NCBI GenBank assembly: GCA_963700535.1 | Contig: CAVOXU010000002.1 | Location: forward strand, 88,094 to 152,093 | Direction: 5' to 3' | DNA: 64,000 bases | Source of the DNA: Chrysiogenales bacterium | Lineage (GTDB): Bacteria; Acidobacteriota; Aminicenantia; UBA2199 | Shown here: one piece after another, positions 6,681 through 54,110 of the stretch | How the letters are laid out: the number at the start of each line of letters is the position of its first letter | How positions within the stretch are numbered: position 1 is the stretch's first letter | Position numbers and translations under genes: made by a program | Notes under the pieces: model-generated | Database searches by the model: none | What the model saw: the letters and a program-made list of their open reading frames with translations, nothing else | What the model was told of the DNA's origin: nothing

Positions 6681-6764
6681 GTGATAGTGTTAGTGTTAGC
6701 AAAAGCACACACCCGAAACTCTTTGAAGATCGATTGTTTTCTTCCTAACACTAGCACTAACACC
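6681..6764. repeat. Intergenic inverted-arm element, locus A (hexamer units)
   Basis: Left arm gtgatagtgttagtgttagc. Right arm cctaacactagcactaacacc. The arms are reverse complements of each other, separated by about 45 nt. Confidence 0.6.
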
Positions 6765-6825
6765 GATACTTGCTTTTATTGGGTTTGCTCTACAGTGCGG
6801 TTTTGTTTATAATTGGGTTTCCGCC

Positions 6826-8070
6826 TTGGAGGGAAAATTGATCCTGGCCGCCAAATTCCTGCTGCTTGTCGTTCTGCTGATCCTGCTTCTGCGCTTGAAG
6901 GTCGAACTCTCCCTGGCTGTTTTTGCCATCACCCTGCTCACCGTGGCCCTGTTCGGAGTCAACCTGTTCAAGGCCGGAGAGAGCGCCTGGGCGGGAGTAA
7001 GCGATCCCCAGACCCTGGAGTTGTTCCTGATCATCATCCTGGTGCAATATATAGGCGCCGTGCAGAAAAGCCGGCGCATGTACGACCGCCTGATCGATTC
7101 GCTCAACACCATGATCCGCGACAAGCGCCTGGTGGCCATGGTCTCTCCGGCCATTATCGGTTTTCTGCCCATGCCGGGAGGGGCGCTGCTCTCGGCGCCG
7201 CTGGTCCAGGTTTCCACCGATAAAATGAAGCTGAAGCCGGCTTTCAACGCTTTCCTCAACTTCTGGTTCCGTCATGACTGGGAACTGATCTGGCCGCTCT
7301 ATGCCGGACTGCTGCTTTTCCAGACCTTGTCGCGCATACCGATGCGCCGCATCATTTTGTTCCAACTGCCGTTTTCGATCCTGCACATCAGCACCGGCCT
7401 GGCCGTTTCCTTCTGGTATTTCCGCCGCCACGGGATTCAACGGCAATATCCGGGTGCGAGCAATGGCATAAACGCCACGGTGCGCGACTTCTTTTCCGGA
7501 ACCTGGCCGATCATGGCAGTGGTGCTGCTTTTCTTCGTCAAGGTACCGCCGCTGCTGCCGCTGCCGCTGCATTGGGCGCTGCTGCTGGTAGCCGCGATCT
7601 TGAGCGTATGGAAAAAAGTCGCTGCCAAAGAGATGGTCGCCGTTATTTTCGGGAAATCCACGATCCGCAGCCTGCTGGTCATTGCCGCGGTCATTGTCTT
7701 TCAGCGCATCATTCAGATTTCTTCAGCGTTTGACACGCTCAAGACCATGGACATCTCCCTGGGCCTGGCCGTGGCTTTCATTTTCATGGTTTCCTTCACC
7801 GTGGCTTTTCTGACCGGGGTGAACACGGCCTACATCGCCATCGCTTTTCCGGTCCTCCTGCCCCTTATCCAGCACCTGCCCAATTACTTTTACCTGTCGC
7901 TGTACATTTATGTGGTCGGATTCGCCGGCATCCTGGTCTCGCCGCTCCACCTCTGCCTGGTGCTGACCAATGAGTATTTCGGGGCTTCCCTGCTCGACGT
8001 CTACCGCTACATGGCGATACCGATATTCGTGATGATTGCACTGGCGACGGGGCTGGTAATGATCCTTTAA
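6826..8070 (+). CDS. DUF401-like polytopic membrane protein
   Basis: 414 aa, about 10-12 predicted TM helices. Confidence 0.5.
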   Translation: MEGKLILAAKFLLLVVLLILLLRLKVELSLAVFAITLLTVALFGVNLFKAGESAWAGVSDPQTLELFLIIILVQYIGAVQKSRRMYDRLIDSLNTMIRDKRLVAMVSPAIIGFLPMPGGALLSAPLVQVSTDKMKLKPAFNAFLNFWFRHDWELIWPLYAGLLLFQTLSRIPMRRIILFQLPFSILHISTGLAVSFWYFRRHGIQRQYPGASNGINATVRDFFSGTWPIMAVVLLFFVKVPPLLPLPLHWALLLVAAILSVWKKVAAKEMVAVIFGKSTIRSLLVIAAVIVFQRIIQISSAFDTLKTMDISLGLAVAFIFMVSFTVAFLTGVNTAYIAIAFPVLLPLIQHLPNYFYLSLYIYVVGFAGILVSPLHLCLVLTNEYFGASLLDVYRYMAIPIFVMIALATGLVMIL

Positions 8071-8133
8071 ATGAAATCGGTATAAGGTTTAGGGTATACG
8101 GTGGACGGTGAAGACAAAAGAGAGTAATAATTA

Positions 8134-8161
8134 GTAGTGACAGGTCGCGACCTGTCACTAC
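8134..8161. repeat. REP-like 28-bp perfect palindrome, copy 1
   Basis: gtagtgacaggtcgcgacctgtcactac, followed by the flank ccgatgatga. Confidence 0.85.
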
Positions 8162-8182
8162 CGATGATGAAATAAAATATAA

Positions 8183-8710
8183 ATGATTCATCAACGTAAA
8201 TACATGCGTTTGCGTGGTTGGGATTACACATCTCCCGGTTGGTATTTTATGACGATCTGCGTGAAAAACAAGGAGTGCTTCCTAGCTGATATTGTAAATG
8301 GGAAAATTATTCCGAATGAGTTCGGAAAAATCGTTGAGTCACGATGGGTTTGGCTTAGAAATCAATATCCTTATGTTGAATTGGACGCTTTTGTCGTCAT
8401 GCCGAATCATGTTCATGGATTGGTTCGGATCGTCAATCCGTCTGTAGTGACAGGTCGCGACCTGTCACTACTGATGATTCCGGAGAAAATCAAATCTTTA
8501 TCCGAAATAATTGGTGCTTTTAAAATGACTTCTTCCAAGGACATCCATTTGGCTGGCTTTCCCAATTTCTTCTGGCAGCGGTCTTTTTATGAAAAAATTA
8601 TTCGTTCGGAACAGGAAGCAAATGCGGTTCGTAAGTATATCAGGGAAAATCATTTGAATTGGGAACAGGATGATGAGAATCCCGACATTGATTTCCGTAA
8701 AATTCCGTAG
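8183..8710 (+). CDS. REP-associated tyrosine transposase (RAYT, IS200/Y1 HuH family)
   Basis: HuH motif MPNHVHGLV and a catalytic Tyr context (WQRSFYEKI). Flanked by REP palindromes, and a 36-nt in-frame palindrome-derived insert encodes SVVTGRDLSLLM. Confidence 0.7.
   Translation: MIHQRKYMRLRGWDYTSPGWYFMTICVKNKECFLADIVNGKIIPNEFGKIVESRWVWLRNQYPYVELDAFVVMPNHVHGLVRIVNPSVVTGRDLSLLMIPEKIKSLSEIIGAFKMTSSKDIHLAGFPNFFWQRSFYEKIIRSEQEANAVRKYIRENHLNWEQDDENPDIDFRKIP
8444..8471. repeat. REP-like 28-bp palindrome, copy 2 (inside the RAYT coding sequence, in frame)
   Basis: Identical 28-mer to copy 1. Confidence 0.85.
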
Positions 8711-8734
8711 TGACAGGTCGCGACCTGTCACTAC
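8707..8734. repeat. REP-like 28-bp palindrome, copy 3 (overlaps the RAYT stop codon)
   Basis: Identical 28-mer. The TAG stop at 8708-8710 lies inside the palindrome. Confidence 0.85.
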
Positions 8735-8754
8735 CGACACCGTGGAATAATTCG

Positions 8755-8783
8755 GGACGATCCCGGTCACTACCGATGATGAT
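8755..8783. repeat. Degenerate REP half-copy
   Basis: cgggacgatcccggtcactaccgatgatga shares gtcactaccgatgatga with copy 1 and its flank. Confidence 0.5.
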
Positions 8784-9756
8784 TACGCAATTATCCCGTT
8801 TTCTTTCAGGACCTTTAAAAATCTCTGCACGCCCAGGCCGTCGACCAATTGCCTTCCGGCTGCGCCCATTTGCTCGCGGTGCTCCCGGGTAAGCGGGGCG
8901 ATCATATCCCGGAATGCATCGATTGTCAGGGCCTCCAGTTTGCCGAAGGCAAGGCCGGCCTGGTGATCGGCCCAGGCGGCTGCCGTAATTGCCTGGCCGG
9001 GCTCCTGATAAAAATACGCGCCGGCGTGCCGATGGCCGCGGCTTCCAAGGTCTCGTTGCCGGCCGGGATCAGGGCCAGGTCGGCCTCGAAATAGGCACGG
9101 GCCGGGCTCTCGCTCTTGCCGCAAAAATGGCTGCCGGGATAAATTTTCATCAAGTTGCGCTTGTCGGCTTTTTTTAGGCTCAATCCAGGCGCTATCCTCA
9201 TTTTGAAATGCAGGCGATGCAGGGTATCGACGATGTGGCGCAGGTCGCGGTAGGGGAGATGATCGCCCAAATTAACAAAGACATTTTTTATGGTTTTGCG
9301 GTATTTTCTTTTGGCTTGGTGAAAATGGCGGAACTTGTGATGCAGCAGGGCGTATGCCGGGCCGGATATGACGATCGCTCCGGCCGCAGCCTGGTTAATC
9401 ACTGCGCTCAATGGCTGCAAAATGAGGTCAACTGGCTGACAGGCGCTGCCGGCATTGACGAACTGCATGGTTTTTATTCCGGCTTTCTTTGCTTTCTCCA
9501 GCAGGGTGCTGTCCGGAGTGGAAAAGTGGGGCAGGTCGAAGATTATGGCCGTGATCCCGGTCAGATCCATGGTGCCCGGATCTGCACCCAGTTGGGCGGG
9601 AATGTTTTTTTCAGCCAGATATTTCGCTGCTTTCTTGTCTTTGCTGTTAAGGATCAGCACCGGGGTGTTTTTTTTCAGGAGAGCTGCCAGCCAGGAGCAG
9701 CGGCGCAAAGGCTGCAGGCCGGATTGCGGTGCGGGGTCGGTGCGAAAGACGATCAT
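8783..9756 (-). CDS. PseG-like glycosyltransferase (GT28 C-terminal / UDP-sugar hydrolase family), with an apparent frameshift near 9010
   Basis: N-terminus MIVFRTDPAPQSG...RRC resembles the PseG/MurG-like fold. A C-terminal block (FGKLEALTIDAFRDMIAPL...) continues in another frame through ORF 8783..9124. Confidence 0.45.
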
Positions 9757-10968
9757 TTAGCCCAGGACTTCTCTGATCTTCTCCATGGCGGCATCGATGT
9801 CACCCTTGGTGATGACCAGGGGCGGTGCAAAGCGGATGATCCAGTCATGGGTCTCCTTGCAGAGCAGGCCCTTTTCTTTCAAAGCGGTGGTGTACTGGCG
9901 GGCTTTGCCTGCCGATTCGTGCAGGACCACGCCGATCAGCAGCCCTTTGCCGCGCACCAGCTTGATTTTATTCGTTTTTTTCTGAAGATCTTTCAATTGG
10001 CCAATGAAATATCCGCCCATCTCAGCGGCGCGCTCGGACAACTTTTCATCCAGCAGCACATCGATCGAGGCCATGGCCACGGCACAGCCCAGGGGATTGC
10101 CGCCGAAAGTGGAGCCGTGGCTGCCGGGTTTGAAGACCCCCAGCACATCCTGGTTGGCGGCCACGGCGCTGACCGGGAATACACCGCCACCCAGTGCCTT
10201 GCCCATGATGATGATGTCGGGATCGATATCTTCGTGCTGGTAGGCAAACAGCTTGCCGGTGCGGCAGAAGCCGGTCTGGATCTCGTCCACGGCCAGCAGG
10301 ATGTTGTTTTTTTCAGCAATCGCGCTCAAGCCTTTCAGGTAGCCGTCGTCCGGAACCACAACGCCGGCTTCGCCCTGGATGGGTTCGACCATTATGCCGA
10401 CAGTGTTATTATTGACCGCTTTTTCAACGGCTTTCAGGTCGTTGTAGGGGACGATCTTGAAGCCGGGGGTGAAAGGGCCATAGTTATCTTTGGCGATCGG
10501 ATCGCTGGAAAAGGAGACGATGGTGGTGGTGCGGCCGTGAAAATTTTCGCTGAAAACGATGATTTCGGCCTTATCGGCGTCCACTTTCTTGACCAGGTAA
10601 CCCCACTTGCGCATGGTTTTGATGGCCGTCTCCACGGCCTCGGCCCCGGTATTCATGGGCAGGATCATCTCTTTGCCGGTCAACTCGGACAGTTTTTTGG
10701 CGAATATCGGCCAGCGGTCATTGAAAAAGGCCCGTGATGTCAGGGTAAGGATGTCGGCCTGGTCTTTCAGGGCCTTGATGATGGCCGGATGGCGGTGGCC
10801 CTGGTTGACGGCAGAATAGGCGGACAGCATGTCGATGTAGCGCTTGCCTTCAGGGTCTTCAACCCAAATGCCCTCGGCCTTGGCGATAACCACTTCCAGG
10901 GGGTGGTAGTTGTGGGCACCGTAGCGATGCTCGATATCCATTAATTCCTGTGAACTCAATTTATTCAT
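9757..10968 (-). CDS. rocD: Ornithine aminotransferase
   Basis: Class III aminotransferase. N-terminus MNKLSSQELMDIEHRYGAHNYHPL is typical of OAT. Confidence 0.85.
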   Translation of the reverse strand: MNKLSSQELMDIEHRYGAHNYHPLEVVIAKAEGIWVEDPEGKRYIDMLSAYSAVNQGHRHPAIIKALKDQADILTLTSRAFFNDRWPIFAKKLSELTGKEMILPMNTGAEAVETAIKTMRKWGYLVKKVDADKAEIIVFSENFHGRTTTIVSFSSDPIAKDNYGPFTPGFKIVPYNDLKAVEKAVNNNTVGIMVEPIQGEAGVVVPDDGYLKGLSAIAEKNNILLAVDEIQTGFCRTGKLFAYQHEDIDPDIIIMGKALGGGVFPVSAVAANQDVLGVFKPGSHGSTFGGNPLGCAVAMASIDVLLDEKLSERAAEMGGYFIGQLKDLQKKTNKIKLVRGKGLLIGVVLHESAGKARQYTTALKEKGLLCKETHDWIIRFAPPLVITKGDIDAAMEKIREVLG

Positions 10969-11040
10969 GAAATCACCTCGTTTTAGTTTGGATTTTATTG
11001 TAGCAGTTTAAACTATTTCGTCAATAGGGAGGCAAGGCCA

Positions 11041-11141
11041 GTAATTCGTAATACGTAATTCGTAAATCGAAACAGCAATCAGACAAATCCAGAAGAATAC
11101 TCTTTTTCTTCCGAATCACTAATCACGAATTACGAATCACG
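11041..11141. repeat. Intergenic inverted-arm element, locus B (heptamer units aaNNcgt)
   Basis: Left arm gtaattcgtaatacgtaattcgtaaatcg. Right arm ccgaatcactaatcacgaattacgaatcacg (imperfect reverse complement). Confidence 0.6.
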
Positions 11142-11231
11142 TAGTGCTTGAAATGCCATAGGCTTGATTATTTTTAACGAAAACGGTATATTTTTTGCGT
11201 AATGCAAAGAATTGATGCTGAGGAGGTCAGG

Positions 11232-11681
11232 ATGAAGGTTGGCAAGATTCTCGAAAACAAGGCCAGCGTTGTATTTTCAGTTCACATTGACGCCATTGTC
11301 AGCGATGCCTTGCAAAATATGGATGAAAAAAATATTGGTGCCCTGATGGTGATCGACAGCCAGGAAAACATCCAGGGCATTGTTTCCGAAAGAGATATCG
11401 TGCGCAACTGCTACCGCAACCAGGCCAATGTCAAGGGGCTGGCCATCCGTGACGTTATGACTCCGCGCGGCAAGCTGCTGGTGGCACGAGCCGAAGATGA
11501 CATCAACAACCTGATGGGGGCCATGACCCAGAACCATATCCGCCACATCCCGGTGGTCAATGAACAGGACAAGGTTGTGGGTATGGTGTCCATTGGCGAT
11601 ATCATCAAGGCCATGTTGAAGGACAAGGATTACCAGATCCGCCACTTGAAGGACTATATCGAAAGCAAATACCCATTATAA
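11232..11681 (+). CDS. CBS-pair domain protein
   Basis: Two CBS motifs. GAGGAGG Shine-Dalgarno before the ATG at 11232. Confidence 0.7.
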   Translation: MKVGKILENKASVVFSVHIDAIVSDALQNMDEKNIGALMVIDSQENIQGIVSERDIVRNCYRNQANVKGLAIRDVMTPRGKLLVARAEDDINNLMGAMTQNHIRHIPVVNEQDKVVGMVSIGDIIKAMLKDKDYQIRHLKDYIESKYPL

Positions 11682-11687
11682 TATCTT

Positions 11688-11822
11688 CAGGTTCGATGTG
11701 CGGAGTTCGATGTTCGACGTTGGAAAACCTTAAAACGAACAAAACAAGAAAAAATATCGATTATTGCTGATTTACAGATATTGCTTTCTAACCTCGAACT
11801 TCGAACCTCGAACTTCGAACCT
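11688..11822. repeat. Intergenic inverted-arm element, locus C (heptamer gttcgaN units)
   Basis: Left arm aggttcgatgtgcggagttcgatgttcgacgtt. Right arm aacctcgaacttcgaacctcgaacttcgaacctt, followed by a T-rich tract. Confidence 0.65.
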
Positions 11823-11826
11823 TGTT

Positions 11827-12957
11827 TTATTTCTGAGCGCTGATCTTTTCGCTGAACCACTTCCAGAGCGCATGGTGAAAGGCGAGCGTGGGTGGGTTCT
11901 CCTGCAGGAAGGACAGGGGATTGAAGTCCAGGGGGGCACCGGTCTGGCGGCGCTGGAAAAGGCCTTTGCGGTAGAGGGTGTGGCGTTCGGGATGAAATTG
12001 GATGCCCAGGACGTTGGGGAAAATGCGGTGTTCAACTGCTTCCACGATTTTTTTGTCCAGTGAGGTCGCAGTCACATGCAAATTTGCACCCAGTTCAGCG
12101 ATCGCCTGGTGGTGGGCCGTGGCCACGAAGGGACGGTCCCCTCCTGAAAATCCCATCTCGCGCACAAAAATGCTGTCTGCACCCAGGCGGATGCGATGGA
12201 ACGTCATCATCAGTTCCGTATCGTTCGGGAAGAGCTTTCCCAGGTAGATTCCCGAATGGATCCGGTCAGGATCTGCTGCCAGGACTTCCTCCACCGTCTT
12301 TTGACCGTACACTTCGCTGGGGATGTCCTGGGTCAGGCTGCCGCCGGTGGCCACGTTCAGGCTCTGGGCCCCCAGGCAGATGGCCAGCAGGGGAAAATTC
12401 CTGCGCCCGGCCAGGAACGGGATGAAAGCCGGATTCCTGCTGCTGCCCAGCAGGTGAAAAATCAAGGAGATCTCGTAATAGGAACGCGCCGGCGTCGAGG
12501 GTTCGGAAAGCAAGCTGATCCCCTGGTTATACAGCGTTGGCGGAATATCCATGCCCCCGGTGAAAATGATGCCGCTGGCCGCGCTGAAGATCTCCTTGAA
12601 TTGGGAAGTCCATAGGTTTTCCTGGAACAGGTCTTTGGCGTCCACCCGGCCAGTTATTTTTCGGAATTGAATCCAGGTGAGCCGATTCTGCTGTACGTAT
12701 GCGAAGGCTTCCTGGAAAGCTTTGGCTTCCTCGCCATTGGCGAGTTCATCCTCGTGGTAGATCCCCAGCAGCACCAGTGATTTCAAAGGCAGGATGTTTT
12801 TTTCGTACAATTCCACTATATTTTGAACCTGGAAGAGGGTAGGATGGGTCATGATAATAACCGGCGCTCCCGCGGAGAAATCCTCTCCCTGCGCTGCCGC
12901 CGTCAGACCCAGGCCGATCAGCAGCAGAAAAATCCATATCAGGTTCTTTTTTTTCAT
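11827..12957 (-). CDS. Secreted class I glutamine amidotransferase-like / peptidase C26 family protein
   Basis: Signal peptide MKKKNLIWIFLLLIGLGLTAAA. GATase1 motifs (ICLGAQ, GIQFHPE). Confidence 0.7.
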   Translation of the reverse strand: MKKKNLIWIFLLLIGLGLTAAAQGEDFSAGAPVIIMTHPTLFQVQNIVELYEKNILPLKSLVLLGIYHEDELANGEEAKAFQEAFAYVQQNRLTWIQFRKITGRVDAKDLFQENLWTSQFKEIFSAASGIIFTGGMDIPPTLYNQGISLLSEPSTPARSYYEISLIFHLLGSSRNPAFIPFLAGRRNFPLLAICLGAQSLNVATGGSLTQDIPSEVYGQKTVEEVLAADPDRIHSGIYLGKLFPNDTELMMTFHRIRLGADSIFVREMGFSGGDRPFVATAHHQAIAELGANLHVTATSLDKKIVEAVEHRIFPNVLGIQFHPERHTLYRKGLFQRRQTGAPLDFNPLSFLQENPPTLAFHHALWKWFSEKISAQK

Positions 12958-13037
12958 GAATACTCCCGAAATGTGCTTTTGGGTTCCAGCTATTGATTTG
13001 AAGATGAAGGAGAGGCCCGCGGGCCTCTCCCCATATA

Positions 13038-14307
13038 TTATTCGCTGAATTTTTTTAAAAGTAAAGTAGCGTTGGTGCCGCCGAATCCGAAGGAATTGGA
13101 CAGGGCGTAGGGGATCTCCCGGCTGAGGCCCTGGTTGGGGGTGTAGTTCAGGTCGCATTCCTCATCCCGGGTTTCATAATTGATTGTCGGCGGGATAAAG
13201 GAGTTGGCGATGGCCAGGGCGGTGAAGGCGGCCTCGGCGCTGCCCGTGGCGCCCAGCATGTGTCCGGTCATGGATTTGGTCGAACTGATGGCCAGCTTGG
13301 CGGCATGATCGGCAAAAAGTCGTTTGATGGCGTGGGTTTCCAGCTTGTCGTTGAGTTCAGTAGAAGTGCCGTGGGCGTTTATGTACACAATGTCTTCGGG
13401 TTTGATTTGGGCGTCGGCCACAGCCATTTTCATGGAGCGGTAGGCGCCGTCTGCTTCGGGATCCGGGGCGGTCATATGGAAGGCGTCGCCGGTGAAGCCG
13501 TAGCCGACGACCTCGGCATAGATCCTGGCTCCGCGGTTGTGGGCGTGCTCCAGGGATTCCAGGATCAGTACCGCGGACCCCTCGGCGATGACGAAGCCGT
13601 CGCGGTTCTTGTCGAAGGGCCGTGAGGCCTTTTCCGGCTGATCATTGCGCGTGGAAAGGGCGCGCATGGCGGTGAAGCCTGCCACTCCCAGGGGAGTGAT
13701 GGGATACTCGGCGCCGCCGGCGATCATGATGTCGGCTTCGCCGCGCTGAATAATGCGTGTCGAGTCGCCGATGGCGTGGGTACCGGTGGCGCAAGCGGTG
13801 CAGTTGGCCAGGTTGGGGCCTTTGAAGCCGAACTTGATGGATACCTGGCCGGCGGCCAGGTTGGCGATACAGGCCGGCAGAAAGAATGGAGATATCCGCT
13901 CCGGCCCCTTTTCCATCAATATTTCCTTGTTGATCTCGATGGTTTGGATGCCGCCGATGCCCGAGCCGATATAGATGCCGGCCCTCACTTTATCAATGAC
14001 ATTCATGTCCAGCCCTGAATCCTTGACCGCCTCTTCCGAAGCGATCAAGGCGAACTGGATAAAGGGATCGAATTTTCTCAGGTCTTTCCGGTCAAAGTAC
14101 TGGTGAGCATCGTAGTTCTTGATTTCTCCGGCGATCTGGCTGGCATGCCGACTGGCGTCGAAGCGGGTGATTTTACCGATGCCGCTGCGCCCGTTGCGGA
14201 GGCTTCTCCCAGTTCTCGTCCTTGTTCTTGCCGACGGGCGTAAACAGCCCGATACCGGTGACGACAACGCGGCGCAAAGGTATTGTCTTGCTTATGAATG
14301 GATCCAT
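13038..14307 (-). CDS. fabF: Beta-ketoacyl-ACP synthase II, with an apparent 1-nt frameshift near 14200
   Basis: KAS II core. The true N-terminus MDPFISKTIPLRRVVVTGIGLFTPVGKNKDENWEK lies in another frame and rejoins at LRNGRSGIGKITRFDAS. Confidence 0.85.
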
Positions 14308-14322
14308 GTTAGCGAACGGGAC

Positions 14323-14565: not shown

Positions 14566-14582
14566 TTTTTCCTCCTTGGATT

Positions 14583-16359: not shown

Positions 16360-16364
16360 TTCAA

Positions 16365-16547: not shown

Positions 16548-16550
16548 TTG

Positions 16551-24922: not shown

Positions 24923-25118
24923 ATATCCCCTTAAGCCGCTTGGGGAAAAGAAAATCAGGAAAAAAACCCGAAAAAAACCCCTGAAACAGTGAAATTCAAA
25001 TAATCAAGCAATATAGGCATTTGACAGAAAAAAAACTCGATAAGGCAAGCCTGTTTTGGATGTCCGAGTGTCAACATTTCCATATCCCCGATAAATCTAT
25101 AAAAAAAACAAAAAAAAC

Positions 25119-35322: not shown

Positions 35323-35339
35323 GAATCCAAACAGAGCCA

Positions 35340-35488
35340 GGTTTACGGCATACGGTAGACGGTTTACGGCAAAAAAAGAACGCAACCTTTCCCCCAGGAT
35401 CTTATCGAATTTGCAGCCGTTCAAGGTGATTTTCTTAGGTAGTGTCTTTGGCTTTCACCGTCTGCCGTCAACCGTAAACCGTACACCG
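35340..35488. repeat. Intergenic inverted-arm element, locus D (heptamer NNNacgg units)
   Basis: Left arm ggtttacggcatacggtagacggtttacggc. Right arm caccgtctgccgtcaaccgtaaaccgtacaccg. Confidence 0.65.
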
Positions 35489-38304: not shown

Positions 38305-38398
38305 CCCCCCCTTCAGTAAGGGGGGAATTTGAAAGGTTAGAGAAGTTGAGTGATTTCTGCTAAAGCGATTGCTTCCAACCCCCCTTTGCTAAGGGGGG
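38305..38398. repeat. Pair of C7/G6 hairpins separated by 53 nt (locus G)
   Basis: cccccccttcagtaagggggg and cccccctttgctaagggggg lie in the def/mutL divergent region. Confidence 0.55.
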
Positions 38399-41847: not shown

Positions 41848-41903
41848 AAAAGGATCAAGCAAGTGAAAAATACCTGGATAAAGACTCGGTATAAGCTGTA
41901 AGA

Positions 41904-42040
41904 CATACGGTTTACGGCGAAGAAAATAACATCAAAATCCAGCCTTAGTCCCGGCAATTTCTTTGTCAGCCGTTTGCCGTGCGTCGTTTCCGTCCGCCGA
42001 ACTCTTCAACCTCGAACTTCGAACAGCGAACCTTTTTGAC
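41904..42040. repeat. Intergenic element, locus E, a mosaic of D-type (acgg) and C-type (cgaac) arms
   Basis: catacggtttacggcg pairs with gccgtttgccgtgcgtcgtttccgtccgccg. It is followed by caacctcgaacttcgaacagcgaacctttttgac. Confidence 0.6.
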
Positions 42041-42745: not shown

Positions 42746-42758
42746 CCGAATAAGCACC

Positions 42759-43945: not shown

Positions 43946-44004
43946 GAAACTTAATTAATCTCCAAAACAATTTCAACAATCATTTAAATTGCAAGGAGAA
44001 AAAA

Positions 44005-44887: not shown

Positions 44888-44893
44888 ACAAAG

Positions 44894-45775: not shown

Positions 45776-45777
45776 CC

Positions 45778-46624
45778 ATGAACGCGCGCCTGGCCCAGAA
45801 GATCGCTTTTGCGCGTCCTGCTGCTGGCCACCCTGCTGGTGGTGCTGCCGGTGCTGGTCATCCTGCTGATCATCGTGGTCAAAGGGGCCAGCGCCATCAG
45901 CTGGGATTTCCTTTTTTCCATGCCCCGCGACGGCATGACCGCCGGCGGCATTTTTCCGGCCATCCTGGGCACGCTCTACCTGGTGATCGGGGCCATTATC
46001 TTTGCCGTGCCGCTGGGCGTCATGGCCGCCGTTTACCTGGTCGAATATTCCAGCGACAACTGGCTGTCGCGCCTGGTCAAGTTGTCCATCGTCAACCTGG
46101 CCGGCGTGCCGTCGGTGGTCTACGGCCTTTTCGGCCTGGGGATCTTTGTCACCTTCTTCGGTTTCGGCGCCTCGATCCTGTCCGGGTCGCTGACCCTGGG
46201 CATCATGATCCTGCCGGTGATCATCACCTCGTCGCGCGAAGCGCTGGAAAGCGTGCCCCGGCATTTCCGCACCGTAAGCCTGTCGCTGGGAGCCAGCCGC
46301 TGGCAGACCATCCGTCATTCGGTGCTGCCGCACGCCTTGCCGGGAATTTTGACCGGCATGATCCTCGGCCTGGGCCGCGCCGCCGGCGAGACCGCCCCCA
46401 TTCTCTTCACCGTGGCCGCATTTTACCTGCCGCGCCTGCCGCAGTCGATTTTCGATCAGACCATGGCTTTACCCTACCACCTGTACGTCATATCCACTCA
46501 GGTGCCTGGAATAGCCGAGAACGTCCGCTACGGCACGGCGCTGGTACTGCTGTCCCTGGTGCTGTTGCTCAACCTGGCCGCCATCCTGATCCGCTCCCGT
46601 TTCCGCAGGAAGAAAAAATGGTAG
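45778..46624 (+). CDS. pstA: Phosphate ABC transporter permease PstA, with a frameshift near 45812
   Basis: MNARLAQKIAF (frame 1) joins LRVLLLATLLVV... (frame of ORF 45809..46624). Confidence 0.8.
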
Positions 46625-47379
46625 ATCCGGCCGCCAAGTTCTCCATTCGCGCTTTCCATGTCCAATACGGCCAGTTCAGCGCCCTGCGCGACCTGAACCT
46701 GGAAATCATGGCCAACGAAATATTCACCGTCATCGGGCCGGCCAATTCCGGCAAAACCACTTTCCTCAATTCCCTGAATCGTTTGATCGACCTGGTCCCG
46801 GTCAGCCGCTGCAGCGGCGAGATCAAATTGGATGGAGTAGATATCCGCCGCAGTCTGGAAGTCGAAGCCTTGCGCCGCAAGGTCGGCATTGTATTTGCCC
46901 TGCCGCTACCGCTGCCCATATCAATTTTTGAAAATGTGGTCTACGGCCTGCGCATGCAAGGCATACGCGATGCGCGGCGCCTGAATGAAGCGGTAGAGAG
47001 AAGCCTCAGCGAATCGTATCTTTGGGAGGAGGTTAAAGACCGTTTGCGTACGCCGGCCATGAACCTTTCCGGCGGTCAGCAGCAGCGTTTGTGCATGGCC
47101 CGCATCCTGGCCGGCCAACCTGATGTGCTGCTTTTCGATGAACCAACCTCGGGGCTGGATCCGATTTCCACGGCCAGGATCGAGGAGACCCTGTTGATCT
47201 TGAAGGAAAAGTACACCATAGTGCTGGTGACCAACAACATAGCCCAGGCGGCCCGGGTTGGTGACCGCACTGCATTTTTTCTGATGGGGGACATGATCGA
47301 AGTGAGCGACACGGGCAAGATGTTCACCACGCCGGCCGATCAGCGCACCAGCGATTACATAACCGGCAAGTTTGGCTGA
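46618..47379 (+). CDS. pstB: Phosphate ABC transporter ATP-binding protein PstB
   Basis: Walker [25 protein letters not shown], Walker B. Overlaps the pstA stop (ATGGTAG). Confidence 0.9.
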
Positions 47380-47380
47380 C

Positions 47381-48138
47381 ATGAACGAGATCAGTATAGA
47401 AACCCGCGCCCTGGACCTTTTTTACGGCGATTTCCAGGCCCTTACCGGGATCGATCTGCGCATACCCGTCCGCCAGGTGACCGCCCTGATCGGGCCCAGC
47501 GGCTGCGGCAAGAGCACCCTGCTGCGGGTGTTCAACCGCATGAACGACCTGATCGACGGCGTGCGCGTCAAAGGCCAGGTCATTATCGACGGCCAAGACA
47601 TCTTCGCCCCCGGAGCCGACCTGCTCCGCCTGCGCGAAAAGGTGGGCATGGTCTTTCAGCGCCCCAATCCCTTTCCCCTTTCGGTTTATCGAGAACATTG
47701 TATTCGGCCTGGCCGTGCATCGCCTGGCGCGGCGGCAGGATTACGACGGCATAGTCGAACAGGCTTTGCGCAGCGTCCTGCTTTGGGATGACCTCAAGGA
47801 CCGGCTGCACCATTCGGCATTGAAACTGTCGCTGGAACAGCAGCAGCGCCTGTGCATCGCCAGGGTACTGCCTTTGAAACCGCAGATACTGCTCATGGAC
47901 GAACCCTGTTCAGCGTTGGATCCCGTGGCCACGCTGCATATTGAGGACCTGATGCAGAGACTGAAAAAAGAGTATACCATCGTCATTGTCACCCACAACA
48001 TGCAGCAGGCGGCCCGGGCCTCGGACCGCACCGGCTTCCTCTACCTTGGCAAGCTCATCGAGTTCGCTGAAACCGAAAAATATTCACCAAGCCGGCTCAG
48101 ACCATGACCGAAAACTACATCAGCGGCCGTTTCGGCTG
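47381..48138 (+). CDS. pstB: Second PstB paralog, with frameshifts near 47688 and 48073
   Basis: [24 protein letters not shown]. The C-terminus [21 protein letters not shown] is recovered by a 1-nt shift in an A-run. Confidence 0.8.
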
Positions 48139-48155
48139 AAACCAGGAGAAAGAAT

Positions 48156-48805
48156 ATGGCAAGAGAACATTTTCAAAACATGTTGCGCGGGCTGGAACAG
48201 GAACTGGTGGCAATGGGGGAGATGGTCATCACTGCCATCGACCGCTCTATCCAGGCGCTTAAGAACGTCGACAAGGCCGAAGCCGAACGCATCATCGCCG
48301 ACGATGCCCTGATCAACCAGCGGCGCTGGGACATCGAAAATCAATGCATCCAGCTTTTTGCCACCCAGCAGCCCGTGGCCGGTGACCTGCGTGAGATCGT
48401 GTGCCCTCATCGATGATCACCAACCTGGAGCGCATGGCCGACCACGCCAAGGGCATCGCCACCATCGTGGTCAGGCACGATCAGAAGCCGCTGCTCAAGC
48501 CGCTGATCGATATCCCGCGCATGGCTGACAAGGCCCGCGAAATGATCCAGAAAAGCCTGACCGCCTTCATCACCCAGGATGTGGAAGCGGCCGCTGCCAT
48601 CATTGAAATGGACAACGAAGTGGACGCTTTATACGATCAGATCTTCCGCGAGCTTCTGACCTACATGATGGAGGATCCCAAGACCATTACCCGCGCCGTC
48701 TACCTGATCTGGGTAAGCCACAACCTGGAACGCATCGCCGACCGCGTGACCAACATCTGCGAACGGATCATCTTCATGGTCACCGGCGAGATCCAATCGG
48801 ATTAA
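48156..48805 (+). CDS. phoU: Phosphate signalling regulator PhoU, with a frameshift near 48400
   Basis: Two PhoU repeats. ORFs 48156..48416 and 48401..48805 are contiguous. Confidence 0.8.
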
Positions 48806-48899
48806 ACCGCAAAGAAAACTGACCAAGTGATTTTCCTGTCAAAATAATCTGCGGCGATTCCGATTCAATGAAAAAAATATTTTTTATTTTTTATTTCTA

Positions 48900-48928
48900 T
48901 TGACACGTGTTTAAAAACAAACTATATT
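48900..48928 (+). promoter_or_regulatory. Sigma-70-like promoter of the kamA operon
   Basis: TTGACA, 17-nt spacer, TATATT, followed by a GGGAGG Shine-Dalgarno and a TTG start. Confidence 0.45.
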
Positions 48929-48956
48929 CTTAATTGAAAAGTGGGAGGCAATAAAA

Positions 48957-50282
48957 TTGAAAAAAGCCAATCAGGTGATGGCCATGAAGGAAGCTGAACT
49001 TCCCAGTGAGGAGGCTGAACCTCCAAGCAGGGCGCTGCTGGAGGAAAGCAACAACCTCGCCCCGTCGTTGCTCTTTCCCGAGTTAATACAATTCCCCAAT
49101 TCCAAACCCGACAAAACAGTTCTGAAGATAGGAGCTCGTTCACTGCAGTTCCTGAGAAAATATTTTCCTTTAGCGACAAAGGATGACTGGAATAATTGGG
49201 AATGGCAGCTGCGCAACAGCATCACCAGCTTGAAAGCACTGCAGCAATTTCTGCAGCTGTCCGATGATGAGGTGCAAGCCATGACCGTGCAGAGCGGCAG
49301 CCTGCCCCTGCGCGTCACCCCCTATTATGCCAGCCTGCTCGATCCACTTGACTCCATGCAGCCGCTGCGCCGCAGTGTCGTGCCGGTAACCGCCGAGCAC
49401 CTGATCTCCTGCGGTGAAGCCGCCGACCCGCTGGGTGAGGACTCCCACAGCCGCGTCCCCGGCCTTGTGCATCGCTATCCCGACCGGGTACTTTTGCTGG
49501 TCACCGGTTTCTGTTCGACCTATTGCCGTTATTGCACCCGCTCGCGCCTGGTGGGCGACCAGAACAAGCGCCATCTCAACCACGAACAATGGGACCGGGC
49601 CCTTTCCTACATCGAACTGAATCCTGCCGTGCGCGATGTCCTGCTCTCCGGCGGTGACCCGCTGACCTTGCCCGATGAAAGCCTTGAATACCTGCTGACC
49701 CGTTTGAGCCGCATCCCCCACGTGGAATTCGTCCGCATCGGCACCAAGGTGCCTGTGACCATGCCGCAGCGCATCACCCATTCGCTGGTCAATATATTGA
49801 AACGTTTCCGTCCCCTGTGGATGAGCATCCATTTCACCCACCCTGACGAGATCACTCCGGAAAGCATTCAGGCTTGCGAGCGGCTTGCTGATGCCGGCAT
49901 CCCCTTGGGCAGTCAGACCGTGCTGCTGAAAGACATCAACGATTCGCTGCCGGTCATGAAAAAATTGATGCATGAACTGCTCAAGATCAGGGTCCGTCCA
50001 TATTATATGTACCAGTGCGATCCCATCGTCGGATCTTCACATTTCCGCACCCCGGTGGAAAAAGGCCTGGAGATAATCGAAGGCCTGCGCGGCCACACCA
50101 GCGGCTACGCCGTTCCCCATTACGTTATCGATGCCCCGAACGGCGGCGGCAAGATCCCGCTGCTTCCCGATTATTACCAGGGCCGGGCCGACGGCAACGT
50201 ATTGCTGAGAAACTACCAACAAAAAATATACCGCTACCCCGATCAGAAGAGCGAAGGATCGGCGCCGGGAGAGGGCTTGTAA
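48957..50282 (+). CDS. kamA: L-lysine 2,3-aminomutase (radical SAM/PLP, KamA family)
   Basis: CSTYCRYCTR radical SAM cluster. Strong collinearity with clostridial KamA. Both lysine-specifying Asp residues are present (YQCDP, VIDAPNGGGK). Confidence 0.85.
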   Translation: MKKANQVMAMKEAELPSEEAEPPSRALLEESNNLAPSLLFPELIQFPNSKPDKTVLKIGARSLQFLRKYFPLATKDDWNNWEWQLRNSITSLKALQQFLQLSDDEVQAMTVQSGSLPLRVTPYYASLLDPLDSMQPLRRSVVPVTAEHLISCGEAADPLGEDSHSRVPGLVHRYPDRVLLLVTGFCSTYCRYCTRSRLVGDQNKRHLNHEQWDRALSYIELNPAVRDVLLSGGDPLTLPDESLEYLLTRLSRIPHVEFVRIGTKVPVTMPQRITHSLVNILKRFRPLWMSIHFTHPDEITPESIQACERLADAGIPLGSQTVLLKDINDSLPVMKKLMHELLKIRVRPYYMYQCDPIVGSSHFRTPVEKGLEIIEGLRGHTSGYAVPHYVIDAPNGGGKIPLLPDYYQGRADGNVLLRNYQQKIYRYPDQKSEGSAPGEGL

Positions 50283-50366
50283 AAGCCGGTGCCCGTCTGA
50301 AAAACCGCTTGCGTATTTTTATCAGGTGGAATAAAATCACCATGAAATCCAAACGCAGAGGAACCC

Positions 50367-51345
50367 ATGAACATCGGTTTAACCTATGATCTGAGACAGG
50401 ATTACCTGGATGCAGGATACAGCGAAGAACAAACCGCTGAGTTCGACAGTCCCGCCACCATTGCCGCCATTGACAAAGCGCTTATCGCCATGGGGCACAA
50501 GACCATGCGCATCGGCAATGTGAAAAGCCTGGTTCAGCGGCTGGCCGCCGGCGAGCGCTGGGATATGGTCTTCAACATCTGCGAAGGCATGTTCGGGCTG
50601 GGACGCGAGGCCCAGGTGCCGGCCCTGCTCGATGCCTACCAGATCCCCTATACCTTTTCCGGCCCCCTGGTGCTGGCCCTTACCCTGGACAAGGCCCTGA
50701 CCAAGCGTGTGGTCCGTTCCCTGGGCGTGGCCACCCCCGATTTCGCCGTGGTTGCGGCCAAGGAGGATATCGCCGCCGTTGATCTGCCCTTTCCCCTTTT
50801 TGCCAAGCCCCTGGCCGAAGGCACGGGATTGGGCATCGATGCCAGGTCCAAGATAGATTCCCGCCGGCAGTTGACATGCCGTCTGTTGCGAATTACTGGA
50901 AAAATTCAAGCAGCCGGTGCTGGTGGAGACCTATCTGCCCGGTCGGGAGTTCACCGTCGGCATTGTCGGCAGCGGCACTGCGGCCGAGGCCGTCGGCGTG
51001 ATGGAAGTTTTTTTGAAGCCCGAGGCCGAAGCCAATGCCTATTCATATGTCAACAAGGAGAACAGCGAGGAATTGGTCCAGTACGCGCTGGCGCCCGAGG
51101 CCGAGGCCTCAGCTTGCCGGGATGTGGCTTTGCGGACCTGGCGCGGCCTGGGTTGCCTTGATGCCGGCCGCGTCGACTTGAAAATGGACAGGAACGGTGC
51201 CGTTAATTTCATAGAGGTCAATCCCCTGGCCGGCTTGCATCCCGAGCACTCCGACCTGCCGATCATCTGCAGCCTGGTGGGCATCCCCTTCCAGGCGCTG
51301 ATGGAGAGGATCATGGCTTCCGCCGGCCGCAGGACGCGCCCATGA
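50367..51345 (+). CDS. ATP-grasp ligase, D-Ala-D-Ala-ligase-like, with a frameshift near 50875
   Basis: Ddl-like N-terminal and central domains. The C-terminal ATP-grasp block (LVETYLPGREFTVGIV...FIEVNPLAG) is in ORF 50917..51345. Confidence 0.7.
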
Positions 51346-52350
51346 AAGGAAAAAACGCGGTCATCCTGCACAGCCAGGTCGAGGCAGATTCGCCCAAGGA
51401 CGAACAGGATGTGCTGGTCCAGGCCGAGCGAGGTTTGCAAATCCCTGGCCGAATTGGGCTATCAACCGCTTGCCGTACCCTTTTCCCTGGATATTGAAAA
51501 AAATATCCGCACCCTGAAAAAAATGGATCCGCTCTTTGTCTTCAACCTGGTGGAGACGGTGGAAGGCAACGGCCAGCTGATCCACCTGGCTCCGGCGCTG
51601 CTCGATCACCTGGGCCTGCCCTACACAGGCAACAGCCAGGAAGCGATTTTTGTAACCTCCAACAAGGCCCTGTCCAAGAAGCTTTTCTCTGCGGCCGGGG
51701 TGGCTTCCCCGCCCTGGCTGGCTGTTGGAAATCCCCGGGATGCCGCTGCGCTGGGAGCGGGGAGGTACCTGCTGAAATCGGTCTGGGAGCATGCCAGCAA
51801 CTGGTTCGACGACAGTTCCCTTGTCCAGGTCGACGACGGCGCGGAATTGGGCGCGCTGCTGGAGAAGAAGAACCGCGGCGGCCGCGGCCGCTTCTATGCC
51901 GAAAGTTACATCGATGGGCGTGAGTTCAACCTGGCGCTGCTGACCGGTGAATTTTTACCGGCAGCCGAGATCCAGTTCATTGAATTTCCTGACGACAAAT
52001 TGCGCATCGTCGATTTCCGTGCCAAATGGGAAGAGTCGTCGTTTGAATACACCCATACGCCGCGCTCCTTTGATTTCCCGGCCGCCGATCAACCGCTTCT
52101 TGCCGAGTTGCGGACCATCGCCGGCCGCTGCTGGGATTTTTTCAACCTGCGCGGTTACGCCCGGGTCGATTTCCGCGTGGACGAAAACAACCGTCCCTGG
52201 GTGCTGGAGATCAATACCAATCCCTGCCTCTCTCCGGATGGAGGTTTCCATGCCGCCGCTGAACGGAGCGGTCTGTCGTTCACCCAAACAGTGGCAAGGA
52301 TAGTCAATGATTGCCTGTCCGGCCAAGGAATAGAATCTTTGCGCGAATGA
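51342..52350 (+). CDS. Second ATP-grasp ligase, Ddl-like, with a frameshift near 51430
   Basis: Start overlaps the upstream stop (ATGA). Motifs ESYIDGREFNLALL and VLEINTNPCLSP. Confidence 0.7.
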
Positions 52351-52361
52351 TGGAGGAATCC

Positions 52362-52856
52362 ATGAATAAGTCCGAACCGTTGGTTTTTCGCGAAGATGTT
52401 CTGCCCGGCGATCCCGCCGCGGTCAGAGGAATCGTAGAGTCAACGGGATTTTTCTACGACCATGAGATCGCTGTGGCGGTGGAACTGGTGGAAGAGCGGC
52501 TGCAAAGGGGAATGGAGAGCGGCTACCTTTTCCTGTTCGCCGCGCGGGGTGATCGTACGGTCGCTTACAGTTGTTTCGGTGAGATCGCCTGCACCCAAGG
52601 CAGTTACGACCTTTACTGGATTGCCGTGCATGACGATTGCCGCAACCAGGGCATCGGCAAAATCCTGCTCGAAAAGACCGAAGCGCTGATCAGCGCCCGC
52701 AAGGGCCGCGCCATATGGGTGGAAACCTCGGGCCAGGAAAAATACCTGCCGACGCAAAAATTCTACCTGCGTTTCGGCTACAGGCAAGAGGCGGTGCTCA
52801 AGGATTTTTACGGTGCGAACGATGACAAGATAATCTTTGTCAAACGGCTGGTCTGA
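52362..52856 (+). CDS. GNAT family N-acetyltransferase
   Basis: Acetyl-CoA-binding motif RNQGIGKILL. GGAGG Shine-Dalgarno. Confidence 0.75.
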   Translation: MNKSEPLVFREDVLPGDPAAVRGIVESTGFFYDHEIAVAVELVEERLQRGMESGYLFLFAARGDRTVAYSCFGEIACTQGSYDLYWIAVHDDCRNQGIGKILLEKTEALISARKGRAIWVETSGQEKYLPTQKFYLRFGYRQEAVLKDFYGANDDKIIFVKRLV

Positions 52857-52858
52857 CC

Positions 52859-53928
52859 ATGGTTGAAAAAATAAAAAAAAGATCGCTTAAAAGCGGGCTG
52901 CCTCCGGGGACACTGATGCATATCAGCACGAAGAAGGCCGTGGAGAGCCGCATCCGCATCCTGGATTACGATGAGAGCTTCGCTGCGTGAAAAAAAACAG
53001 GCCGTCTTCGAAGAGTGCCTGCCTTTCTGCGACAGCGCTTCGGTGACCTGGATCGATATTGAGGGGCTCCAGGACGTCGGCCTGCTGGAACGCCTGGGCA
53101 ATGGTTACGGCCTGCACCCCCTGATCCTCGAGGATATCCTTAACACCGACCAGCGCCCCAAGTTCGATGACATGGATGGATATATCTATGTGGTCCTTAA
53201 AATGCTGGATTACGACCCCGACACTGCCGGATATCGTTTCCGAACAGGTCAGCATCGTTTTCGGCCGGAATTTCGTGATCTCGATCCAGGAGGGACGCGA
53301 AGGCGATCCCTTCGAGCCCCTGCGCGAGCGTATCCGCAGCGGCAAGGGGCGCATCCGCAAGCTGGGTCCCGACTACCTGGCCTATTCCCTGCTCGACGCA
53401 ATTATCGACCATTATTTCCTCATCCTGGAAAAATTCGCCGAAAGCATCGAGATGCTCGAGGAAAACCTGGTCAGCGATCCCGGGCCGGAAACCCTGCACC
53501 GCATCCACCACCTGAAGCGGGAAATGATCTTTTTGCGCAAGTCGGCCTGGCCCCTGCGCGAAGTCATATACGGCCTGGAAAAGAGCGATTCCGACCTGAT
53601 CCGCCCGGAAACCAAGATATTCCTCCGCGATATATACGACCATGCCGTGCATATCATCGACAGCATCGAAACCTACCGCGAGATGCTCTCCAGCATGCTG
53701 GACATCTACCTTTCCTCGGTGAGCAACCGCATGAACCAGGTGATGAAGGTCCTGACCGTGATCGCCACCATTTTCATGCCCCTCACCTTCCTGGCCGGCA
53801 TCTACGGCATGAACTTCAAATACATGCCCGAGACCGGCTGGCGCTGGGGCTACCCGCTGGTGCTGCTCATCATGCTGGGCGTGGGCGGGCTGATGTTCTA
53901 TTTTTTCAAAAAGAAAAACTGGCTGTAG
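52859..53928 (+). CDS. corA: Magnesium/cobalt transporter CorA, with two frameshifts near 52985 and 53225
   Basis: YGMNF motif and two C-terminal TM helices. The N-terminal blocks lie in other frames (ORFs 52971.. and 53167..). Confidence 0.8.
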
Positions 53929-53946
53929 TAACGATACATCGCCCAT

Positions 53947-54110
53947 GGACATCGTCTGCGTGAAGCCTGAGTTAATTTAGCGATCATTCATGAATTCGTA
54001 GTGTGATAGCGAAGAATTTTATTGTAATTTCATATTTATGCTTTTTTTCATCACGCTTCATATCTCACGCGTCACGCCAGTTCGCCTGCCGTCAACTCGT
54101 TCCCTATTGA
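53947..54110. repeat. Intergenic inverted-arm element, locus F (heptamer cgtgaNN / NNtcacg units)
   Basis: Left arm gacatcgtctgcgtgaagcctgag. Right arm catcacgcttcatatctcacgcgtcacgcc. The interior carries fragments resembling loci A and B (gtgatagcg, gaattcgtag). Confidence 0.5.

Follow-up and report, generated by a model that had tools for sequence, protein, structure and literature searches.

A window of 64,000 nucleotides (64 kb) on contig CAVOXU010000002.1, from a bacterium placed in the Aminicenantia, carries intergenic elements in which two tandem arrays of a short unit face each other in inverted orientation. This architecture of intergenic inverted tandem-unit arms is real, and it is intact at four loci (A–D). 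The family extends beyond the loci first noticed in an initial annotation of the sequence: as a superfamily found across the clade it accounts for a large share of the intergenic DNA, and tandem-unit modules build nearly half of the larger non-coding gaps of the window. Our preferred reading, to which we give a probability of roughly 0.45, is that the elements form a REPIN/BIME-like, lineage-specific superfamily of non-coding, hairpin-forming mosaic intergenic repeats, which would propagate themselves, recombine and double as two-way transcription stops. The window (WIN) was compared with 166 fetched relative or metagenome loci (L001 and so on), among which L161–L166 were obtained via an acyl carrier protein match and L162 is a 99% identical relative.

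Tandem 6- and 7-mers are present at the reported loci according to both Tandem Repeats Finder and our own lag-autocorrelation detector, and the same two tools give units of 6, 7, 8, 9 and 11 nt in 3–5 copies per array across the family. Our detector counts 10 tandem runs in the window, of which 6 have an inverted partner, against shuffle means of 1.7 runs and 0.17 paired runs (100 dinucleotide shuffles, done in 500-nt blocks); within the window, to which this control applies, paired arms thus lie far above shuffled sequence. All period-7 runs are intergenic. Among the close inverted repeats that an inverted-repeat tool returned for the 64 kb, A, C, D and B are the four longest. The initial annotation had assigned at least six loci (A–F) to this architecture; A–D are borne out by the paired-run count and by folding, whereas E is decayed, F consists of remnants and neither folds better than shuffles.

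Element A (6672–6772) has arms at 6675–6699 and 6745–6769, each with four tandem 6-mers (GTGTTA and TAACAC), which enclose a 45-nt spacer that runs from CAAAAG to TTTTCTTC. Element B (11041–11141), with arms at 11041–11072 and 11109–11141 of four tandem 7-mers (GTAATTC and GAATCAC), is placed exactly between the −35 boxes of the rocD promoter (11024–10997) and the divergent promoter of a CBS gene (11164–11192). The arms of element C (11689–11822; arms 11689–11724 and 11787–11822) consist of 4–5 tandem 7-mers (GTTCGAY and YTCGAAC) and are mismatched at every seventh position. Element D (35339–35488) is of the ACGG type and pairs four NNNACGG units (35339–35369) with four CCGTNNN units (35458–35488) across a spacer of 88 nt. 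None of the four is assigned to a strand, and their arms are separated by 36–88 nt. As RNA, all four fold far better than shuffles. Element A gives z values of −7.8 and −6.0 as RNA (plus and minus strand) and −4.0 with DNA parameters, element C −4.9 and −6.5 as RNA and −4.9 as DNA, and element D −3.5 and −3.4 as RNA and −2.5 as DNA. Element B, which alone shows a strand preference in folding, gives −2.4 as plus-strand RNA, −4.6 as minus-strand RNA (−5.6 with the folding tool's own shuffles) and −1.6 as DNA. An Rfam search of the whole window at gathering scores returned 0 matches, and a known RNA family was rejected as the identity of the elements.

Locus E (41887–41999, no assigned strand) is a decayed ACGG-type pair with its left arm at 41887–41919 and its right arm at 41970–41999, and its fold is no better than that of shuffles (z −1.3 and −0.8 as RNA, 0.05 as DNA). 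It is followed on the plus strand by a solo right arm of the GTTCGAN type (42008–42032; AACCTCGAACTTCGAACAGCGAACC), which has its own CTCTTC leader and a T-rich tail, and which shares type and flanks with the right arm of C. Another solo arm, missed by the initial annotation, is an ACGG-type left arm on the plus strand at 8079–8110 (GGTATAAGGTTTAGGGTATACGGTGGACGGTG, then GAAGACAAAAG), the partner of which was lost to the insertion of a RAYT/REP cassette; the orthologous site in L001 holds a complete pair (12196–12325). When folded over 8076–8126 this arm gives no fold (z +1.5). It is paralogous to the left arm of E, and both start with TCGGTATAAG. Locus F (53997–54096, no assigned strand) retains a weak left arm (53997–54011), a TCACG-type array (54049–54078; leader TTTTTTTC) and an ACGG-type fragment (54083–54096), and is without a hairpin (z +0.2 and −0.5 as RNA, +0.36 as DNA). 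Unit types are mixed at E and F, with an ACGG pair and a GTTCGAN solo arm at E and the TCACG and ACGG types at F. Locus G, which had been counted as a related layout, has no tandem-unit arms: it lies on the plus strand at 38306–38398, between the divergent def and mutL genes, and contains two direct copies of the small hairpin CCCCCCTTnnnnAAGGGGGG (38306–38325 and 38379–38398). This hairpin recurs in L002 (1232–1251) and L003 (9090–9109), and G is a separate REP-like C6/G6 hairpin family outside the tandem-unit family.

Each arm is part of a module with a constant order. Outward from the centre of the element, a pyrimidine-rich leader (approximately TTTTCTTC) is followed by 3–5 tandem units of 6–11 nt and then by a T-rich tail. 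Over 88 arms, pyrimidines account for 67% of the 14 nt that precede the array and for about 75% immediately beside it, and the 14 nt that follow the array contain 41% T versus 20% A, compared with a background of 20% T. Solo arms retain the pyrimidine-rich leader. A unit consists of a constant core of 4–6 nt and 1–3 free positions, and the two arrays of an element are built on one core (ACGG, TCGAAC, GACGT, GTGAC and others) and run in opposite orientations. In the ACGG type the outer ends AAATCGG...CCGATTTC and the inner junctions, ACGG-CAAGAAAAA on one side and TTTTCCCA-CCGT on the other, are conserved in many genomes. The common leader–array–tail layout and the conserved ACGG termini and junctions uphold the proposal of a shared origin or generative mechanism. 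The heptamer types are also closer to each other than random heptamers (mean nearest distance 1.36 versus 1.98, P ~0.01, for hand-picked type representatives), which is only suggestive of common descent. Orthologs differ in unit number, as do the two arms of one element, which is expected from replication slippage; super-periods of 14 nt and 18 nt are present.

The two arms had been described as approximate reverse complements. They are so through their shared periodic core, but not unit by unit: over 40 elements, the complementarity is 78.5% in register and 78.1% after one arm is slid by one unit. The arms are therefore no unit-by-unit mirror copies of each other, their pairing comes only from the shared core, and the hairpin is able to zip up in any register. 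A unit-by-unit palindrome, or compensatory evolution between the arms, was rejected on the basis of the same equality. The mismatches are balanced (67 G·T versus 66 A·C), as expected if both strands or the DNA itself matter, so that no single RNA strand is favoured overall and an RNA-only structure on one strand was rejected. Such symmetry would also suit elements that act purely at the DNA level, as cruciforms or absorbers of supercoiling that insulate convergent or divergent genes topologically and have no RNA role. Element B lies between divergent promoters, where no transcript is expected, the centres are AT-rich and the arms GC-richer, and A, C and D fold with DNA parameters (z −2.5 to −4.9). 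However, spacers of 36–90 nt and 20–25% mismatches make extrusion energetically costly, B folds poorly as DNA, and symmetric wobble counts are equally expected of hairpins that are transcribed from both strands in convergent gaps. We regard a purely DNA-level role as very unlikely.

The elements are concentrated in one lineage. Relatives of the window's rocD gene (ornithine aminotransferase, 9757–10968) with 97–98% identity come from metagenome-assembled genomes, most of which bear the label Aminicenantes or Acidobacteria. When the count is limited to paired arms whose units measure 7 nt or more and are no multiple of 3, the window and its closest relatives (390 kb) contain 8.7 per 100 kb, more distant genomes with the same rocD gene (Synergistota, other Aminicenantes and others; 798 kb) 0.25 per 100 kb, and unrelated metagenome loci (449 kb) 0.67 per 100 kb. 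The elements are thus about 35 times denser in the close relatives than in other rocD-carrying genomes. Among the unrelated contigs, which came from a RAYT query, L144 (809–879 and 3780–3849) and L090 (11231–11379) contain inverted tandem-heptamer pairs with spacers of about 10 nt; the L144 locus is cyanobacterium-like and its arrays are of the CCCCAGT/ACTGGGG type, CCCCAGT being the classical unit of the cyanobacterial short tandemly repeated repetitive (STRR) sequences. A cyanobacterial origin of the window (HIP1/STRR) was rejected: GCGATCGC is not enriched in it (2 found versus 2.3 expected), and the rocD relatives point to Aminicenantes.

The coding DNA of the window is 70–95% identical to that of the relatives, and the alignments are interrupted precisely where a gap holds an element, namely at site A (6663–6826), site H (8070–8790), site B (11028–11161) and site C (11681–11850). 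At site B, which separates the promoters of rocD and the divergent CBS gene, relatives whose flanking genes are 85–99% identical have at least six unit types that are unrelated to each other. Orthologous copies of element B are found in L001, L078, L162 and L166; other relatives carry CGTGATT, GTTAAAG, an 11-mer (GAGGGAAGANA), AGTGACN, AGTAGNN, CGTGACG or GGCNNNN units at this site, and L016 has no element. The orthologous gaps thus carry the same architecture with unrelated unit types, and the earlier conclusion that the elements are not the site of one sequence-specific regulator holds. The rocD promoter itself (10997–11024; TTGACG, 16 nt, TG-TACAAT, within CTATTGACGAAATAGTTTAAACTGCTACAAT) is near-invariant in about 20 loci, and the DNA directly upstream of it is wholly replaced between relatives. 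The 11-mer type, found at site B of L004, L007, L009, L011, L013, L080 and L164 (for example, L011 3671–3796), has a polypurine arm (GAGGGAAGANA)n that faces a polypyrimidine arm and could form a triplex (H-DNA) besides a hairpin; the L007 element has unequal unit numbers in its two arms. Another divergent gap of the window (1100–1240; 1096–1240 at its widest), passed over in the initial annotation, possibly contains the decayed remains of an 8-mer-type element like those at site B of L002 and L003 (AGTTCAAC AGTTCAAG GGTTACGG ... CTTTAACC); the region 1096–1240 folds no better than shuffles.

Site C, a convergent gap, is occupied in every relative, by GTTCGAN, CGTRACG or AGTGACN types, ACGG-type composites or REP-type hairpins. 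An ortholog of element C with a single difference is found in L162, and one of about 85% identity in L163. At site A, L162 and L165 carry near-identical copies of the window's element; in L003 it is absent, with just 34 nt between the same flanks. This one comparison of an occupied with an empty site, where the boundary is ambiguous and 6 nt have been replaced, revealed no target-site duplication. In the 99% relative L162, elements A, B and C differ from those of the window by 0–2 nt, and in relatives of 88–95% identity same-type orthologs differ by about 5–15%, like their flanks. The differences between genomes are therefore discrete replacements, and hypermutation of the arms is rejected. 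The arm at site H alone is clearly more diverged than its flanks (~84%).

The replaced units come from a limited vocabulary of types that recur over sites and genomes, which contradicts the earlier statement that the unit sequence is different at every locus. Elements are also nested within each other. At site C of L001, ACGG arms lie outside CCAAAT arms, which lie outside AAAGG arms, and the order ACGG, CCAAAT, then AAAGG or GATGAGT types is found in L001, L006 and L008. A hybrid CGTRACG/CCGT pair occurs in L012 and L013, and one composite of about 260 nt, formed by a CGTRACG arm, a CCAAAT hairpin and a CCGT arm, is present at two sites of L013. This duplicated composite and the paralogous arms of E and 8079–8110 indicate that the unit types form dispersed families; the elements are dispersed, nested and mosaic repeats that did not arise independently at each locus. 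Among WIN, L001, L002, L003, L008 and L161–L166, the flanking genes of which are 88–99% identical, two element alleles at site B and three at site C are found in each of their six possible combinations, and the gene between the two sites is only 480 bp long. Either recombination between old alleles is frequent within 600 bp, or the metagenome contigs are chimeras of strains.

A purely mutational origin would require neither function nor mobility: each locus would grow its array by slippage and mirror it by intra-strand template switching. Among the long simple-sequence repeats of bacteria heptamers are the most common, slippage being accepted as their cause (Mrazek 2007, as summarised in PMC4679880), and the variable unit number and the 14-nt and 18-nt super-periods agree with such growth. 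Nevertheless, template switching should favour complementarity in register, which is not seen, and leaders, termini and junctions are common to loci and genomes. The limited vocabulary of types, the 35-fold restriction to one lineage, and the occurrence of paralogous copies and of composites in duplicate (within one genome, near-identical copies of full length were partly seen) also speak against it, and we consider a pure by-product very improbable.

A transposase gene lies at site H. The RAYT/REP cassette (8134–8734, plus strand) contains a RAYT-type IS200-like Y1 transposase gene (8183–8710) and three copies of a GTAG-tagged REP palindrome, GTAGTGACAGGTCG|CGACCTGTCACTAC, at 8134–8161, 8444–8471 and 8707–8734. 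The Pfam Y1_Tnp match of the open reading frame (E=1.7e-7) covers only part of it, after the REP insertion. The cassette was inserted in the loop of the ACGG-type element of site H and removed one arm. The REP copy at 8444–8471 lies inside the reading frame of the RAYT gene and keeps the frame, encoding ...PSVVTGRDLSLLM...; the same internal REP is found in the 84% identical RAYT ortholog of L078 and in L162. In L082 (10286–10329), a 68% identical RAYT relative has a 9-nt-periodic insertion (CTACCAATG-like) at about the place of the internal REP. Among the relatives, site H holds the complete element in L001, the same RAYT in L078, L162 and L166, and a different RAYT fragment with its own GGGGCG...CGCCCC REPs in L003/L161 and L165. 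This second REP family, (GTA)GGGGCG-N10-CGCCCC(TAC), accompanies the fragmentary RAYT in L003 (12180–12605) and at site H of L165, and its dispersed copies fill the site C gap in L002, L003, L161, L165 and L166. RAYT cassettes and elements appear to share the habit of landing in hairpin loops, and REPs inside larger palindromes have been reported (PMC3733652). Pieces of REP flanks or half-REPs are duplicated in tandem (L078 3760–3880 and 4950–5020; window 8724–8782), with AATCGGTAGT... three times at a spacing of about 29 nt and CCTGTCACTACCGA twice at 28–39 nt, which indicates that REP ends too spawn local tandem copies.

The RAYT protein was rejected as the enzyme that mobilises the elements, since the window RAYT is flanked by classical REPs and not by tandem-unit arms, and the tandem-run detector found no paired tandem-unit arms around 80 metagenome RAYT relatives, the flanks of which were not inspected individually. 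The elements might instead be miniature inverted-repeat transposable elements, with tandem units that serve as reiterated subterminal transposase-binding sites and an autonomous partner elsewhere in the genome. Several observations fit this explanation. The termini are conserved within a family and the internal sequence is free; the arms and these termini form terminal inverted repeats (e.g. AAATCGG...CCGATTT); copies of one subfamily occupy different sites, whole elements are present or absent between relatives, and elements are nested. Geobacter insertion sequence (IS) elements also stand at a fixed distance from the class-1 sites described below. On the other hand, no target-site duplication was seen at the single comparison with its ambiguous boundary, and no arm-flanked transposase gene was noticed in about 1.6 Mb of related DNA (the window and the 166 loci), in which no dedicated long-range search for arm pairs was made. 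Each of the many types would require a cognate enzyme, and the duplication of a composite with non-matching ends (a CGTRACG arm and a CCGT arm) fits recombination better than transposition. Transposition of this kind therefore seems unlikely to us.

The placement of the elements bears on their possible function. The intact elements begin 5–20 nt past stop codons. Element A starts 9 nt after the stop of a radical-SAM gene (6663), and the solo arm at 8079 likewise 9 nt after a stop codon. Element C fills the convergent gap from 8 nt past the stop of the CBS gene (11681) to 5 nt before that of the next gene (11827), and D is 17 nt and 19 nt away from the stops of the convergent glucan phosphorylase gene (35322) and RsmB-like gene (35507). 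In the clade loci, 15 of 43 convergent, 13 of 54 divergent and 5 of 85 tandem gaps are occupied. A consensus scan found no enrichment of canonical terminator-like sites in the first 20 kb (31 found versus 28.9 expected); the sites listed are inside coding sequence and do not follow stop codons, except for one on the REP palindrome at 8133–8162, and none is on an element. The proximity to stop codons, the preference for convergent gaps, the succession of A-rich run, hairpin and T-rich run whichever strand is read, and the lack of an excess of terminators make a bidirectional terminator or 3'-end hairpin the most economical explanation. In the superfamily that we propose, two modules with the same core lie back to back and can form a long, periodically mismatched hairpin; replication slippage would make and homogenise the arrays, and the modules would spread by copy-paste or ectopic recombination. 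Transcripts of the elements may then act as bidirectional transcription stops, as protective hairpins of 3' ends, or as both, and copies between divergent promoters such as B would be tolerated insertions or insulators.

Placement and build also have to be weighed against binding by proteins. The paired arrays could be platforms for abundant DNA-bending or nucleoid proteins, or for unidentified global regulators, with the core as a contact that is repeated 3–5 times per strand, and such a reading (IHF/HU) has a precedent in the Geobacter metallireducens pairs (PMC2700814). The sharp division into constant core and free positions, the matching of arms via the core only, the existence of solo arms with their own leader, and the enrichment in convergent and divergent gaps, where transcription-driven supercoiling accumulates, are all compatible with it. 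However, at least six unrelated cores are interchangeable at one orthologous site, where one relative has none; the more than 15 core types would need as many proteins; and unit lengths of 6, 7, 8, 9, 10 and 11 nt allow no common helical phasing. IHF and HU are not known to recognise such motifs. A protein platform is thus an unlikely explanation.

Several points weigh against the hairpin-forming superfamily with a role at transcript ends. We infer termination or 3'-end stabilisation purely from position and layout, and the occupancy counts, in which few orthologous sites are resampled and the gene calls are our own, are indicative only. A classical intrinsic terminator has a short GC-rich stem, a loop of 3–8 nt and a tight U-tract directly behind the stem; the T-rich tails are no such tract, and loops of 40–90 nt are much longer. 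Element B, between two −35 boxes, would be transcribed by neither flanking gene, so the proposed function cannot explain every copy. Self-propagation has to contend with the fact that no mobilising enzyme was found, the nearby RAYT being flanked by GTAG-REPs rather than arms, and that the one occupied-versus-empty comparison (site A) lacks a target-site duplication. Furthermore, the split between core and free positions could reflect protein contact, and the shuffling of alleles could partly reflect chimeric metagenome assemblies.

The closest described systems are in other phyla. A literature search on Aminicenantes repeats found nothing, and one search on STRRs and hairpins yielded nothing useful. 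In Geobacter metallireducens (Aklujkar et al. 2009, PMC2700814), intergenic pairs of opposite-strand sites were grouped into classes 1–3 with 24, 21 and 8 pairs, each site being formed by 3–5 tandem units of 8 nt (GTTGCTYN), 8–9 nt (TCTCCGTS[Y]) or 7 nt (MTYCTGA). Some pairs are hybrid, IS elements adjoin sites at a fixed distance, the class-3 pairs start 71–114 nt apart, and most arrays are led by a T/C-rich leader resembling CTTTTCTT or CCTTTC; the authors guessed, without a test, that the sites bind global regulators such as IHF or HU. The elements described here likewise have 3–5 head-to-tail units with a conserved core, opposite-strand intergenic pairs and a T/C-rich leader. Several classes per genome also occur in both, the window having at least five types, two types at E, the solo arms at 8079 and 42008 and, in L012 and L013, hybrids among its relatives. 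They differ in phylum and in diversity, with at least 15 core types in the clade as against 8–24 pairs per class in one genome. The Geobacter study did not look at nesting, at the turnover of alleles or at complementarity independent of register, all of which are known from the Aminicenantes elements. In Xanthomonas (Rehm et al. 2015, PMC4692102), each genome has 70–75 inverted pairs of GGGAATC arrays, which are mostly intergenic, close, convergent and on opposite strands, and whose positions are conserved between species while length and sequence vary. That system uses one G-rich unit able to form G-quadruplexes, whereas the elements of the window have many types with units that are not rich in G-tracts. 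What is shared with the Geobacter and Xanthomonas elements is the layout and the T/C-rich leader only, as the unit sequences differ. The elements are, on this analogy, not a new kind but apparently a new, unusually diverse member of a described, functionally unexplained class of paired tandem-repeat sites.

Other repeat families share single traits. REPINs, BIMEs and NIMEs (Bertels & Rainey 2011, PMC3116915; Di Nocera et al. 2013, PMC3733652) consist of inverted repeats 20–100 bp apart that form one long hairpin, and REP doublets and BIMEs are extragenic, often at gene 3' ends, built from mosaic modules and variable in presence between strains. The inverted doublet, a spacer in the 20–100 bp range, folding as one long hairpin, the location and the mosaic habit are all found in the present elements. 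Unlike REPs, however, their arms are direct tandem arrays and not imperfect palindromes of 20–40 bp; the ACGG, GTTCGAN, GTAATTC and GTGTTA types carry no GTAG/CGTC tag, GTAG being present in the AGTAGNN type only; and no cognate RAYT was found for them, the RAYT at 8183–8710 having its own GTAGTGACAGGTCG palindromes, which carry GTAG. With the cyanobacterial STRR heptamers and other long simple-sequence repeats (Mazel 1990; Mrazek 2007; discussed in PMC4679880 and PMC4692102) the elements share tandem heptamers in intergenic DNA and limitation to certain lineages, but STRRs are usually single direct arrays of a few fixed heptamers, and paired geometry, leader and spacer are outside their definition. 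Bidirectional intrinsic terminators are similar in being located just past stop codons, mostly between convergent genes, and in the A-rich run, hairpin and T-rich run; they differ from the elements, which have stems of 25–35 bp with periodic mismatches, loops of 36–90 nt and no tight U-tract, and which a consensus scan misses.

The recurrence of the layout permits a wider interpretation. Leader, periodic core array and T-rich tail might define a widespread, unrecognised class of elements that is common to Aminicenantes, Geobacter, Xanthomonas and cyanobacteria and has trans-acting machinery of its own, the arrays being neither a by-product of slippage nor a passive hairpin. One candidate for such machinery would be a protein that binds single-stranded nucleic acid and measures about 7 nt per subunit, for example a cold-shock-domain protein that opens and closes the register-free hairpins and thereby regulates termination; another would be a dedicated enzyme that writes or copies arrays. 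We consider this interpretation decidedly unlikely.

The window also contains A-rich direct repeats at 24959–24986 and 25101–25118, in which GAAAAAAACCC and AAAAAAAAC each occur twice. They are located in a 250-nt AT-rich gap upstream of a type IV pilus gene cluster.

The elements fill the examined convergent and divergent gaps in nearly every relative and are thus a major component of the non-coding DNA of a widespread uncultured lineage. Their resemblance to the paired tandem-repeat sites reported from Geobacter in 2009 and Xanthomonas in 2015 suggests that these are instances of an architecture that recurs across phyla and not isolated curiosities. The matching of arms in any register, through the core only, is a concrete design feature that can be tested, and the culturable Geobacter metallireducens offers a direct experimental system. 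Should the elements serve as terminators or 3'-end hairpins, a different model would be needed to predict terminators and call operons in such genomes.

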